Positions 1-58,974 of a stretch of 64,000 bases of DNA are shown here, piece after piece; position 1 is the stretch's first letter; each line of letters begins with the position of its first letter. The DNA is taken from positions 1-64,000 of the IMG/VR virus record IMGVR_UViG_3300028887_000067; one strand, written 5' to 3'. The DNA is from a virus. Taxonomy: Duplodnaviria; Caudoviricetes. Made by a program: the position numbers and the translations under genes. Below the pieces are notes generated by a model, which saw only the letters and a program-made list of their open reading frames with translations, did no database searches and was not told the origin of the DNA.

Positions 1-10
1 CTAATGGCCC
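1..10 (-). tRNA. 5' fragment of a further tRNA gene, truncated by the window edge
   Basis: Minus strand reads GGGCCATTAG, identical to the first 10 nt of the tRNA at 25..98, with the same upstream TAT. Confidence 0.6.
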
Positions 11-24
11 ATACATAAAAACAC

Positions 25-98
25 TGGACCGATGTCGGGCTCGAACCGACGACCCCCTGATTGCAAATCAGGCGCTCTACCAACTGAGCTAATGGCCC
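25..98 (-). tRNA. tRNA-Ala(UGC)
   Basis: GGGCCAT-TA-GCTC-AGTTGGTA-GAGC-G-CCTGA-TT[TGC]AA-TCAGG-GGGTC-GTCGG-TTCGAGC-CCGAC-ATCGGTCC-A. G3:U70 and A73 present; one extra C in the 3' acceptor strand; no encoded CCA. Confidence 0.93.
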
Positions 99-194
99 AT
101 ATCCGAGGAGCCGCAACTACGTGCAGCGCCCGGAACAAGAAATATGGTTATCCGAACTGTCAATCTGCCGACGAGCTTCACGAGCTCGTCTTAG

Positions 195-268
195 TGGACA
201 CAGACGGGATTCGAACCCGTAAATCCGCTCCGTGCTAGGGAGGGGCATTACCATTCTGCCACTGGCCC
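195..268 (-). tRNA. tRNA-Ala(AGC), unusual A34 anticodon
   Basis: GGGCCAG-TG-GCA-GAATGGTAA-TGC-C-CCTCC-CT[AGC]AC-GGAGC-GGATTT-ACGGG-TTCGAAT-CCCGT-CTGTGTCC-A. G3:U70, A73; extra T in the 3' acceptor strand; C27-C43 mismatch. Confidence 0.85.
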
Positions 269-285
269 ATATGATCGGTGTATGT

Positions 286-321
286 AAAAAGCCCCGGTTG
301 CTCTTGTTGCAACCGGTGCTT
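286..321 (-). terminator. Intrinsic terminator just upstream of the tRNA cluster
   Basis: Minus strand AGCACCGGTTGC-AACAAGA-GCAACCGGGGC-TTTTT. Confidence 0.75.
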
Positions 322-347
322 CCTATCAAACATCAACCTTCAGGAAA

Positions 348-461
348 TCATCGGTGCAACCCTTGCATGCAATCGTCCAGCGTATAGCCTGCGAACCAGC
401 AATTGGACTTTGCCAACTGTTCGCTTCCGCGTGCGCTAATGTTGAGTTTTGATTGCATCAT
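348..461 (-). CDS. 37-aa putative leader peptide MMQSKLNISARGSEQLAKSNCWFAGYTLDDCMQGLHR (below the ORF-track cutoff)
   Basis: ATG at 461 preceded by GAGGTG Shine-Dalgarno; TGA at 348-350; GCTAAACT motif at 490-497. Confidence 0.55.
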   Translation of the reverse strand: MMQSKLNISARGSEQLAKSNCWFAGYTLDDCMQGLHR

Positions 462-583
462 AGTAGGATTCACCTCTGTTACGAAAACAAGTTTAGCAAT
501 CCTCGATAAGAAAAACAAGGGTTTTTTGGCAATTTTTCGAAAAATATTAAAAAAGTGTGATTTTTGTCACACTTTCGTAATAA

Positions 584-1399
584 CTAGGCCTGCGGCGAGT
601 TGTTCGACGGGGCCGGCCCGGACATGAACTGGCCGGAAATAACCAATCTATATCGATGCGGAGTTGGTGGTGTATTTTCAACGTATTTAACCGGTATCAC
701 TCTAATCCACAACGAATCCTGACTATTACCGAAGGTTATCGTAATCTCATATCTTTCATGATTAACTCGACCAAATGACTGATGGTCAATTGGAATTTGA
801 ATATCCGGGCGAGTTTGACCAGATGGTGTTGGATTTGCACGAGTATCATAGGTGACATTATTGTACGACGGAATCAATACATTTTGATATTCATAAAAGA
901 CACCAAATCGCATAACGGTCACTATACTGAAAATTTCATTTGGATCCAAGTTTGCGCTGGGCTCTTCATCCGGTACCGAAACAATGATTGAATCGGCGTT
1001 TCCGTCTTGACTACGATTCCATTTAACCTTAATTTGATGACCATTCGGCGACGCAATAATAACGTCATCACCAACTTGATACCTATCATTATTTACATCG
1101 ATGGAAACATCTTGACTGAATGCGAACGTATTTCTCATCGCATCGAGCACACCCAATGCGTTAATGGGCCTATGACTATCAGCGAGACCACTATCCGGAA
1201 CAAATGTCGACTGAATACTTTCCTGATTAACGTGAATATTTCCGTTAGTATCTCTATGAGTCCACGATACGTATTTATCCGAGGGTGCGCCCGTAATCAT
1301 CGTACTGCCGACACCCATATTGTTCTGCGCCGTCGCCTTTTCAGTGGGGTCTAACGACTGATCCACGCTCCAGAGTATACTCGGGTTCTCCTTGCTCAT
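584..1399 (-). CDS. Putative fibre-associated structural protein (271 aa)
   Basis: N-terminal QSLDPTEKATAQNNMG resembles the QxLTxxQKxQARxNIG motif of phage fibres; GAGGAG RBS; AT-richer 3' part. Confidence 0.5.
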   Translation of the reverse strand: MSKENPSILWSVDQSLDPTEKATAQNNMGVGSTMITGAPSDKYVSWTHRDTNGNIHVNQESIQSTFVPDSGLADSHRPINALGVLDAMRNTFAFSQDVSIDVNNDRYQVGDDVIIASPNGHQIKVKWNRSQDGNADSIIVSVPDEEPSANLDPNEIFSIVTVMRFGVFYEYQNVLIPSYNNVTYDTRANPTPSGQTRPDIQIPIDHQSFGRVNHERYEITITFGNSQDSLWIRVIPVKYVENTPPTPHRYRLVISGQFMSGPAPSNNSPQA

Positions 1400-9931: not shown

Positions 9932-11056
9932 ATGGGACCGATTGTTATAAAGGATTATGGCCTTGTGCTCGGCTCCTTCAGTCCGATGCACACCGGCCAT
10001 CTTGACCTAATCATGCTGGCCAAGAAGATGTGCCGCCGTGGCGCAATCATCGCCGTCTGCGGGCTCGACGGCGACCGCGGCACTAAGGTAGGCCTCCCCA
10101 TAGAGCGCAGGTACTCCATTATCAAGTCAATGTTCAAGAATGACCCCCTTGTCAAAGTCATCTACATGAAGGACAACGACATCGGCATCGCCGGCTACAA
10201 CGACAAGTGGGGGGAATGGCTGGAAGCGCTCAGCAAGGAAATGGTAGCCTGTGTTCATGGGGCGGACAAGGTATCGAAGAGCATGTGCAAGAAGATGCTC
10301 TGCCAGACGACCCTCTTTACCGGCGAACCAGCCTACAAGAAGGCCATCGACGAACTCAACCTCGGCATTAACGCATTTGTTCTGAGTCGCGACTTGAACA
10401 AGATTTCTGCAACCAGTATTCGCAAGCACCCGATGACGCACTGGAATGAAATCATTGGCCCCGCGTACAGGTCGGCATTTGCCAAACGTGTCCTGATTAT
10501 CGGGACCGCTTCCGAAAGAAAGTCTACGCTCACCATGGACCTCGCCCGTTATTTCGACGCCGACTACAGCGAGGAGTACGGCCACGAAGTCATCGCCGAG
10601 AAGACCAGCAAGTGCGCGAAACCCGACGACACGCAGCTTACCTACAATGATTTTATCAATTTTCTTGACGTGCAACTCGAGAAGAACTCCACCTGCGACA
10701 AGAAGTTGAAGATTTGCGACAGCGACGCAATGACGACACTCATGTACGCGAAGTACTATTCGACGGACGACAGGTATCTCATCACCGAGGCCGACTACGC
10801 GGAGCTTGAAAAGCACGCGTCTTTCCTGAAATACGACCTCATATTCGTGCTACCCCCTAAGAAGGACAGCTGGGTACAGGACGGGTGCAGGGATTGTCTC
10901 ACGAACAGCTTCGAGGACAGGCAGAAAATGTACCAGATATTGATGAAACTTATTGGCCAGCATTACTGCACTGAAGATATCGTGTACCTTAATGGTACTT
11001 ACCTCGACAATTTCATCCAGGCCCGAGACACACTCAAGCAGTTGCTGTCGGATTAA
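9932..11056 (+). CDS. nadR: NadR-like NMN adenylyltransferase / ribosylnicotinamide kinase (no HTH)
   Basis: GSFSPMHTGH (HxGH), ISATSIR, P-loop GTASERKST, EEYG, CDSDAMTT, WVQDGCR. Confidence 0.9.
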   Translation: MGPIVIKDYGLVLGSFSPMHTGHLDLIMLAKKMCRRGAIIAVCGLDGDRGTKVGLPIERRYSIIKSMFKNDPLVKVIYMKDNDIGIAGYNDKWGEWLEALSKEMVACVHGADKVSKSMCKKMLCQTTLFTGEPAYKKAIDELNLGINAFVLSRDLNKISATSIRKHPMTHWNEIIGPAYRSAFAKRVLIIGTASERKSTLTMDLARYFDADYSEEYGHEVIAEKTSKCAKPDDTQLTYNDFINFLDVQLEKNSTCDKKLKICDSDAMTTLMYAKYYSTDDRYLITEADYAELEKHASFLKYDLIFVLPPKKDSWVQDGCRDCLTNSFEDRQKMYQILMKLIGQHYCTEDIVYLNGTYLDNFIQARDTLKQLLSD

Positions 11057-25535: not shown

Positions 25536-26666
25536 CTAGTTGCTGTACTCGTGCATCTTGGTACCGAAATCGCCCAGGCCGGCAAACCCGCCGACACGGG
25601 CCGAATAGTCGACCCCTCCGTAGTAGTTTTCCACGCGTTCGGGAAGCATCGGCGTCATATTCGAATACTCGGCACGCTTCATCGCCTCGTTATACATCTC
25701 GATATGGCGATGCCTGTCGTAAATTTCCGGGTTGATCCACATATGGGACGGCCTGATGACGGCGTTGACGGCGAGCAGCTTCTCCAAGCACTTAGCCGCC
25801 ATAGCGTAGTCGCCCACCGCGTACTGGTACTTCGCCCTGTAGTAGTACCCCTCTGGCCTTCCGGGCAGCTCCTCGATCATCTGTATCGAACGGGCGCCCA
25901 TCGTCGCGAGGTCATCCTGACGGAGAGCGATGTCGCACAGGGCCTCCAGCGACTTGGCGCGTTCCTCGTTGAGCATGTCGGGGAACTCGTCCACGGTGAC
26001 GGAATACCATTCCTTCGCAGTTTCGAAGTCGTTGATGTCCCGTGCGGAGTTCCCGAGGTAGAAGGCCGACCTCTGCGTATGCTGAAGGTTCCAGTCCTTC
26101 ATAAGCGCCTTGACGTTACGGGACAGGTCACGGTACTTCTTGAAGTTGTCCACCATGAACCTGGTCGTCACCACCTGCCCGTCGCGAGCCGTATTGACCA
26201 TATACTCGTGGATACGTCCCTCGAACCGGGCAAAATCCTTCGGCGCGATCCTCACCCTCGGGAAGGCGAACGACCTGTCGACCCTGGTGAGCATCGTTAT
26301 ACTTGCGTGCGGTATGCGACGGACTATCTTGTCAAACGCGTCGCGCACCTTGGGGGCATTCACGACAACGTCGTTCACGTCGACCCACATCACGTAGGGA
26401 CAGGTGGCCATATGGATGGCGTAGTTCTTGGCGCCGCCGAAATCGAATATACCGTCATCGTCGTGGAAGAGGGTGCCGACCTTGTCGAACACCACCCGCG
26501 CCTGCGGGTGCGTCTCGACCCAGTTCTCGATTATTTCGACCGTGCCGTCCTTGGAACCGGTGTCGATGATCACGTACTCGTCCACAAGCGGAAGAAGAGC
26601 GTCGAGACAACGCACGACGCTCGCTTTACCATTGCGGACAACGATACATCCGCTCAAACCGGCCAT
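25536..26666 (-). CDS. GT2 glycosyltransferase with C-terminal TPR-like repeats
   Basis: CIVVRNG, DEYVIIDTGSKDGT, DFGGAKNYA, MWVDVND, FEGRIHE; helical repeats FYLGNS and EGYYYRAK. Confidence 0.88.
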   Translation of the reverse strand: MAGLSGCIVVRNGKASVVRCLDALLPLVDEYVIIDTGSKDGTVEIIENWVETHPQARVVFDKVGTLFHDDDGIFDFGGAKNYAIHMATCPYVMWVDVNDVVVNAPKVRDAFDKIVRRIPHASITMLTRVDRSFAFPRVRIAPKDFARFEGRIHEYMVNTARDGQVVTTRFMVDNFKKYRDLSRNVKALMKDWNLQHTQRSAFYLGNSARDINDFETAKEWYSVTVDEFPDMLNEERAKSLEALCDIALRQDDLATMGARSIQMIEELPGRPEGYYYRAKYQYAVGDYAMAAKCLEKLLAVNAVIRPSHMWINPEIYDRHRHIEMYNEAMKRAEYSNMTPMLPERVENYYGGVDYSARVGGFAGLGDFGTKMHEYSN

Positions 26667-57387: not shown

Positions 57388-58974
57388 TCAATCCGGACGC
57401 TTATAGACGTATTTATAGTTGCCACAATCATAAATACGGTAGATATGACGCTCAAACATAATTTCGTGTTCGGTCTTGGTTGCATCAAACCCAGCTTCAA
57501 CCAGCTTGTGCTTCTGATATTGCATTCTGTTAGCCAAAGAGTCGCCTACGACATAGTAATACGACGGCTCGGTAACACCTTCAAGCGTAAATCCAATTTT
57601 TTCATAGAACGCACCGTTACCGGACCAGCGACGGTCAGCAAAACTGACAACACTCTCCGGATTATGATCTATCAGATAATGAGTAAATAACTTACTGGCA
57701 CCGCCTACGACAGAAACATCGGGGACGGTACAATACCGTAACAATTCCATCACGTCCTTGGAATATCTTCCTGGGCCAAACGTCATCAACGCAACCAAAT
57801 CGGTTCCATTGTACAGGCCATAACGGTGCGTCGAACCGACACACGCTCCCTGAATATGATACTTATCCAAAAATGCGTTGGACGTATCGAAATCGACAAG
57901 CTTAACCTCACAAGTTCTTGCATAAATTTTGCGACGTACTGCACCCAATATAATAGCTAGACGCGCCTTAACGATGTCTTGCTTGTACTCCCATTCATTA
58001 GAAAATATATGGATCAGATGATAACCAGCTTTTTCGGCTAATTCGGTCTTCATCAAATGATAATCATTAGGACGGTACAATTCGTTATGCCAATGAATTC
58101 CGTCGTACTCTATAATCAATTTCTTAGACTCAACCACGATGTCGGCTCCATAGACACCCATGAAAGCTCGATCATAGTGTTCCGTGGTAAAGCCCAAGCT
58201 CTCAACATATTTACGTAGGTTATCCTCCGCGATAGAAGACCAAGCATCCTTCGGCTTACAATGCGAGCACGGCGTACAACCGAGATTATCCCGGTTCTTG
58301 ATATACAAATCTTGCTCCGTCATCGTCTCGCCACAAACATTGCACTTAAACGTGATTTCCTTCTTGTTACCGAACTCAATCAGTTCGCAGTTGTATTTTG
58401 AAAGAAGTTCGGTATACCCATTTATAGCAGCTTCACGATTTTTGCAGAAGTAATAAGGTACACCGATTCGTTTCATATTAGCGGCTTGCAACTTCTGCTG
58501 GAACTCCGGCAATTCTATATAAGATTTGACTCCATACCGCTCCATATTGGATGTATGGTACTTATTAACAAAATCCTTGTGCTGCGAATAGAACTCGACT
58601 CCATGACGCTCGACCATCGTAGCCTTTCGCGTTTCCAGTATCTTTTGATTATACTCGCCGTTGGATTCTTCATTCAGCTTTGTAACAGTTTCTTGGCGAG
58701 CCGCTGTCTTATGAGCGTTACGTTCTGAATCCTTTGCGATATGTTGAGCAGCACACCTCTTAGAGCAAAATTCTTTATAGCCTTGGCCAATCGACCGAAA
58801 ACTGGTAGGTTTACCACATTCGGCGCACTTACCCTCACCCGGCTTAGCGAGATACTGGTCATAGTATTGCTGGGGGTTTAAGCCGTGAGTTTTCCAAAGG
58901 TGTGTTCCCAAAGAACACGCCTTCTCGTATTCGACTATTTTTCCAGACCGTTCACAAATAAGACATCTATGCAT
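57388..58974 (-). mobile_element. Free-standing Hef-like homing endonuclease gene (528 aa)
   Basis: C2H2 and C4 zinc fingers, ERYGV-type repeats, DIVV...IIEYDGIHWH nuclease motif, C-terminal KIYAR...HIQG...GGASKLF...SFADRRWS...IYDCG domain; visibly AT-richer than flanks. Confidence 0.8.

Follow-up and report, generated by a model that had tools for sequence, protein, structure and literature searches.

Why would a phage carry alanine tRNA genes in which one extra nucleotide interrupts the acceptor stem, a helix whose uninterrupted seven base pairs are, to our knowledge, treated as near-universal in cytosolic tRNA? This question is raised by the window analysed here, a 64,000-nucleotide stretch of DNA at the start of a 308-kb linear IMG/VR record (IMGVR_UViG_3300028887_000067, termed G000), which is estimated to be 81% complete. 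G000 represents a T4-like myovirus, as indicated by its matches to a major head protein, a portal protein, a baseplate wedge protein and a late sigma factor. The features at the beginning of the window are the following:

1..10, minus strand: first 10 nt of a third tRNA gene, cut at the contig end
25..98, minus strand: tRNA-Ala(UGC), with 5' strand GGGCCAT (7 nt), 3' strand AT[C]GGTCC (8 nt) and A73
31, minus strand: bulged C of tRNA-Ala(UGC), between pairs 5:68 and 6:67
99..194, minus strand: 96-nt spacer between the two Ala genes, with two predicted hairpins, partly conserved in sister phages
195..268, minus strand: tRNA-Ala(AGC), first gene of the array, with GGGCCAG (7 nt) / CTG[T]GTCC (8 nt) and A73
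200, minus strand: bulged U of tRNA-Ala(AGC), between pairs 4:69 and 5:68; bulges of this form are the most frequent in the family
234..236, minus strand: the rare AGC anticodon, identical in the independent assembly L370; genes of sister phages with a similar body have UGC or GGC
294..316, minus strand: terminator-like hairpin, approximately 25 nt upstream of the first tRNA
570-541, minus strand: sigma-70-like (promoter-like) matches, as consensus matches only; the promoter-like site lies within an inverted repeat at 551-576

Both complete genes are tRNA-Ala genes according to their identity elements, anticodon and Rfam score. Each possesses G3:U70 together with G1-C72, G2-C71 and A73, and a UGC or AGC (i.e. 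NGC) anticodon in a 7-nt loop, and the two score 56.3 and 38.5 bits against the Rfam cloverleaf (RF00005; gathering threshold 29); single-sequence minimum free energy folds did not yield the full cloverleaf. The uninterrupted 7-bp acceptor stem is the only feature of tRNA-Ala that they lack, their acceptor branch being 7/5 plus the bulge with perfect T-stems. The bulged strands that an earlier note on this DNA had described were recovered; the bulge restores seven pairs including G3:U70, and G3:U70, A73 and both 5-bp T-stems were found intact in both genes, as was the shared upstream motif, TATGGGCCA, before all three tRNA starts (271, 101 and 13). Removal of exactly C31 or T200 generates a perfect 12-pair acceptor plus T helix, with the lowest energy among five deletions tried, and the bulge is predicted to cost approximately 4 kcal/mol in helix stability. 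The unbulged register leaves two mismatched pairs in the window genes (cmscan alignment), and registers that dispense with the bulge or place CCA earlier are ruled out by these mismatches and by the encoded CCA of homologues, which fixes A73. Neither complete window gene encodes CCA, and tRNA-Ala(AGC) has a C27.C43 mismatch in its anticodon stem that is also seen in its homologue L366. The spacer at 99..194 has no Rfam match. These two genes are the only complete tRNAs of G000, whose array is cut at the contig end, and a low-stringency ARAGORN search with introns on this record returned mostly noise.

The bulges are real in the DNA. A metagenome scan identified three independent assemblies, including L370 (JAEEGK010000010.1), which is 99.15% identical over window positions 1-1064 and carries both bulges; conservation in relatives had been set beforehand as the check, and by its outcome the extra bases are not an assembly error. 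In L369 and L371 the UGC gene is unchanged. In L370 and L369 the third tRNA, of which the window retains positions 1..10, is a tRNA-Ala(GGC) that has the same bulged C, and in L371 it is a GGC gene with a bulged U. The array of L370 reads Ala-AGC, Ala-UGC, Ala-GGC, a 160-nt Ala-ended RNA and Ala-CGC, followed by approximately 27 tRNAs of other types, and all four of its Ala tRNAs (AGC, UGC, GGC and CGC) are bulged, the extra base being U, C, C and G, respectively. A search with the neighbouring ORF (584-1399) detected no relatives; a search with the capsid protein found them instead, and these sister phages (87-96% capsid identity) possess the same array layout. In the sister phage L097 the GGC gene is canonical while the UGC and CGC genes are bulged, such that the bulge state differs from that of L370 at equivalent slots, as would be expected in a conflict. 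One sister array lies on a contig assigned by binning to a ruminal Prevotella MAG.

The 160-nt RNA gene is located at L370:1140-1300, and also in L369 and L371, between Ala-GGC and Ala-CGC and past the contig end of the window. It keeps G1-G2-G3, G3:U70, A73 and the T-arm, with a long insert replacing the normal D and anticodon arms, and it has no match in Rfam. Separately, A34 anticodons, which are unusual for bacteria, occur in Ala-AGC of the window and in Thr-AGU of L370 and L097; a cytidine/adenosine deaminase (PF00383) was not found in G000 (81% complete).

The earlier suggestion of two independent insertions in the window phage was not upheld, since each stem type occurs in other phages: AT[C]GGTCC in L018, L027 and L035, and CTG[T]GTCC in L010, L041 and many more. 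Both types were thus inherited from a family of wide distribution. When mapped onto a tree built from the tRNA bodies (a weak tree of approximately 63 columns), the bulge state requires at least 31 changes, compared to 58-82 for shuffled labels, a result equally compatible with repeated gains, repeated losses and the swapping of stems.

To delimit this family, viral sequences in IMG/VR were searched with a pattern that required G1-G2-G3, an NGC anticodon and, from the T-loop to the acceptor end, one nucleotide more than usual. The 116 viral stretches that matched yielded 86 distinct internal-bulge genes with 30 acceptor-stem types; G3:U70 in these homologues is imposed by the search pattern, and the register is backed by an encoded CCA in 32 of the 86. 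A few further bulged genes, which have an 11-bp branch, were hidden among genes of normal length. Within a slice of viral tRNA-Ala loci defined only by a single T-arm motif class, 3 of 106 (approximately 3%) are bulged and approximately 97% are canonical. In GTDB, at least 47 distinct internal-bulge genes were detected, at least 40 of them in tRNA arrays; among the matches listed, these belong mostly to cyanobacteria, and also to haloarchaea, Borrarchaeum, Planctomycetota, Myxococcota and Pseudomonadota. The housekeeping Ala genes were canonical in all five genomes examined (hosts other than that of the window phage), the array copy alone being bulged. At least 45 GTDB matches whose extra base falls at the helix junction or within the T-arm were set aside; nearly all are solitary, many derive from one MAG series, and they (e.g. 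L247, L256, L260 and L283) are probably sequencing errors, which can mimic unusual tRNAs. Canonical and bulged Ala genes stand side by side at 13 viral and 16 genome loci, and 85 of 98 viral loci have no canonical Ala gene on the stretch examined.

Cultured phages also carry the bulged gene. It is present in phiEa21-4 and, at 100% identity, in 34 further records (35 Kolesnikvirus-like records), and in phiEa21-4 it is the only annotated Ala gene of the array. Other cultured carriers are Acinetobacter phage AM24, Bacillus phage vB_BcoS-136 and the crAss-like phages DAC15 and PhiCrAssBcn4, the latter two (L658 and L660) combining the same U bulge with an acceptor stem of 8 bp and a T-stem of 4 bp; the PhiCrAssBcn4 gene is unannotated. 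Additionally, KVP40 and 25 related Vibrio phage records carry a bulged gene, labelled as a pseudogene or unannotated, that is 98.7-100% conserved across these 26 records. In the model phage KVP40 itself the gene (L657, 175581-175655) is mis-annotated as a pseudo-tRNA, being in fact a bulged tRNA-Ala with an 11-bp branch and an encoded CCA, and GenBank also applies the pseudogene label to the phi-Grn1 copy (L364), which has the same structure. Stenotrophomonas phage Mendera, which was among the best blastn matches, has a canonical gene.

When compared to canonical bacterial tRNA-Ala (RF00005; PMC9976931), the bulged form shares G1-C72, G2-C71, G3:U70, A73, the cloverleaf, the 5-bp T-stem and the NGC anticodon, but differs in having 8 nt in the 3' strand, one of which bulges out after pair 4 or pair 5, in occurring only in phage or mobile arrays (in the genomes checked) and in one copy having the rare AGC anticodon. 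Natural tRNAs with an altered acceptor branch were described by Mukai et al., namely allo-tRNAs (8/4 and 9/3), SelC* tRNA-Cys and phage 8/4 tRNA-His and tRNA-Ser, some of which are found in phage clusters and some of which, with G3:U70, were shown to insert alanine (PMC5389517, PMC7609411). In those tRNAs, however, the bulge (51a) lies in the T-stem and the change represents a shift of the helix junction, whereas the bulged tRNA-Ala has a mostly 7/5 junction, a bulge inside the acceptor stem, a short variable arm and no dedicated synthetase. An allo-tRNA or SelC* identity of the window genes was ruled out by their 7/5 branch, their perfect T-stems and the lack of an AlaRS match in G000 (81% complete); within the family, an 8/4 branch occurs in the crAss-like homologues only. 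Phage counter-defence tRNAs (PMC10264068; T5-family tRNA-Tyr against retron Eco7, PMC11555353) provide a functional parallel, as a phage tRNA is proposed, or has been shown, to keep translation going once the host pool is cut, but the known examples employ overexpression or substitutions that fall mainly in the anticodon loop, while the candidate here would be an acceptor-stem insertion. Most cellular bulged genes lie in horizontally moving arrays such as the L-arrays of cyanobacteria and other organisms (PMC8421152); the Anabaena 7120 array differs in having a canonical Ala gene only, and several other cyanobacterial arrays pair a bulged with a canonical gene. The bulged acceptor stem is not mentioned in the main texts of PMC5389517 and PMC7609411, nor is the bulge in that of the L-array paper (PMC8421152), and no description was found in a search of the openly accessible literature, mostly without supplements. 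The bulged tRNA-Ala is therefore apparently an undescribed variant of tRNA-Ala.

Several properties of the family suggest that the bulge is under selection, as the earlier note had supposed: covariation, a fixed position, specificity for alanine and confinement to mobile arrays. Firstly, 32 of 36 viral acceptor types (counted before the pairing filter and somewhat inflated by related sequences) pair fully around an internal bulge, compared to a mean of 6.4 and a maximum of 16 in 5,000 shuffles of the 3' strands. The pairs themselves vary, 4:69 being C-G, U-A or G-C, 6:67 being A-U, U-A or C-G, and 7:66 being G-C, U-A or C-G. Secondly, the extra base belongs to the 3' strand, where it follows pair 4 in 63 genes and pair 5 in another 18, and none of the family genes shows an internal bulge in its acceptor strand on the 5' side. 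KVP40, whose 11-bp branch is one pair short, and PhiCrAssBcn4, with its 8/4 branch, both have the same U bulge after pair 4 as well. Thirdly, at most 6 of 2,577 non-Ala tRNAs from these loci fell into the bulged class, including three Met tRNAs with an ambiguous start, a contrast which, as the Ala genes were selected for the bulge, shows only that the arrays are not generally loose. The bulged genes have D-loop GG in 87 of 90 and, in scans without an anticodon term, an NGC anticodon in 58 of 58 real tRNAs. It is established that AlaRS does not read the anticodon (PMC9976931), and the retention of NGC regardless points to selection for the decoding of Ala codons. The bulge is an alanine-specific exception to the unbroken stem, and many phage groups and mobile arrays have conserved it.

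What is kept in the family (the top pairs with G3:U70, A73, D-loop GG, the T-loop and the Ala anticodon, with a looped-out base that is mostly U) is consistent with a chargeable, decoding tRNA-Ala whose bulge would block a host acceptor-stem nuclease or toxin, an interpretation that we consider to have an even chance of being correct. The bulged tRNA-Ala probably remains functional in translation, and it may escape enzymes with which the host degrades ordinary alanine tRNA. Maturation would depend on RNase P, 3' trimming and CCA addition by the host, and the host AlaRS, which reads the top of the stem, would charge the RNA; we infer this reliance on host enzymes because AlaRS (PF01411) has no match in G000 (81% complete), the bulged genes are not accompanied by any particular protein family and the window genes encode no CCA. 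Once charged, the tRNA would decode GCN codons. Less certainly, the bulge would act as an anti-determinant by distorting the double-stranded stem that a host nuclease or modifying toxin directed at tRNA-Ala needs, so that the phage would keep its alanine supply while the host tRNA-Ala pool is attacked. As the identity pair could not be changed without loss of charging and an anticodon change would be of no help, reshaping of the helix beside this pair would be the available escape.

Enzymes with related activities are known. CdiA-CT of Bp1026b, a competition toxin, cleaves tRNA-Ala within the acceptor stem (PMC9086364), and retron Eco2 introduces nicks 6-7 nt upstream of CCA in acceptor stems that are double-stranded, its listed substrates not including Ala (PMC12916289); the bulge lies approximately in this nick zone. 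Ba1Cas12a3 tolerates stem alterations (PMC12851939), and phages are rescued from tRNA-depleting defences by phage tRNAs (PMC11555353). The literature search found no anti-phage effector that specifically attacks the acceptor stem of tRNA-Ala, and since the hosts of the carriers belong to several bacterial phyla and to archaea, any selective agent would need a very broad distribution. In vivo charging data could be traced for a single array tRNA-Ala, that of the Anabaena 7120 operon (PMC8421152), but were rejected as proof of charging of the bulged form because that Ala gene is canonical. The broader proposition, that the bulge is the footprint of a widespread host defence attacking the G3:U70 stem of tRNA-Ala, repeatedly escaped by insertion of one nucleotide beside the identity pair, is plausible but tentative, and we lean slightly against it. 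If true, tRNA escape in phages and in mobile arrays of bacteria and archaea would be structural rather than at the level of sequence. The bulged tRNA could be employed as bait for tRNA-Ala-directed defences not yet known, and the bulge, a difference of one nucleotide, offers an isogenic test of why tRNAs are carried by phages, as well as a natural probe of the distortion accepted by AlaRS, RNase P, the CCA enzyme and EF-Tu.

Among the alternatives, a tolerated, near-neutral variant fares best, although we consider it unlikely: as AlaRS reads the stem top only, an old insertion would survive in dispensable array tRNAs and spread by array transfer and recombination of Ala genes. Such a history would fit the low prevalence (approximately 3% in one T-arm class), the sharing of bulge state by kin (the 31 changes on the weak tree), the lack of the bulge in essential housekeeping copies of the five genomes and the somewhat variable bulged base and position. 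Yet loss of the base would gain approximately 4 kcal/mol, and the bulge nevertheless persists in bodies as diverse as the canonical ones (mean identity outside the acceptor stem of 0.67 among bulged and 0.67 among canonical genes), in three helix architectures and with tightly restricted position and strand. Ser and Leu synthetases also depend little on the anticodon, yet Ser and Leu tRNAs at the same loci show none of these bulges. The four Ala genes of L370, all bulged with three different bases, also count against this variant.

The earlier note had also raised the idea of a decoy. A decoy or inhibitor RNA would bind a tRNA-Ala-directed effector, be poorly cut or modified and so protect the host pool without much decoding. 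The up to four copies heading the array are compatible with this idea, as is the 160-nt Ala-ended RNA that lies among them in L369-L371 and lacks a normal anticodon arm, and the side-by-side canonical and bulged genes (13 viral and 16 genome loci) suggest separate roles. Its pure version is weakened, however, by the retention of Ala-box anticodons that AlaRS does not read (NGC in 58 of 58, with all four Ala codons covered), and in 85 of 98 viral loci there is no canonical Ala gene on the stretch examined; a decoy is thus improbable.

Tuning to a universal host factor, without a dedicated antagonist, appears similarly improbable. Processing, turnover, EF-Tu binding or editing (by the AlaRS editing domain, DTD or ProXp) would here be adjusted under stress, in line with the spread over bacterial phyla and archaea, which fits a universal partner, with the induction of cyanobacterial L-arrays by translational stress (PMC8421152) and with the enrichment of U50-A64 in bulged genes (63 of 90 versus 27 of 121), a T-stem bias that may reflect ancestry. 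A general benefit would be expected in housekeeping genes too, yet none of those in the five genomes is bulged.

FemX-type transferases read the tRNA-Ala acceptor stem, and the bulge could accordingly mark a non-ribosomal alanine donor for a transferase such as FemX/MurM, alanyl-phosphatidylglycerol synthase or a DNA-modifying enzyme. We regard this as very improbable, since the bulged genes have no protein family that accompanies them, the recurring neighbours being either homing-endonuclease-like genes, equally found beside canonical genes, or clade-specific genes, and since both the elbow motifs (D-loop GG in 87 of 90) and the Ala anticodons are preserved. An assembly error or decay into a pseudogene, to which the pseudogene labels of the KVP40 and phi-Grn1 copies and the error-like helix-junction bases in solitary tRNAs of some MAGs would lend themselves, can be practically discounted given the same bulges in independent assemblies, in 35 Kolesnikvirus-like and in at least 23 Schizotequatrovirus records, and the compensatory changes in the acceptor stem.

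Elsewhere in the window, genes were observed for a NadR-like nicotinamide-nucleotide adenylyltransferase (9932-11056, plus strand), for a glycosyltransferase (25536-26666, minus strand) and, downstream of the capsid gene, for a homing-endonuclease-family protein with a weak Mom-like match (57388-58974, minus strand).
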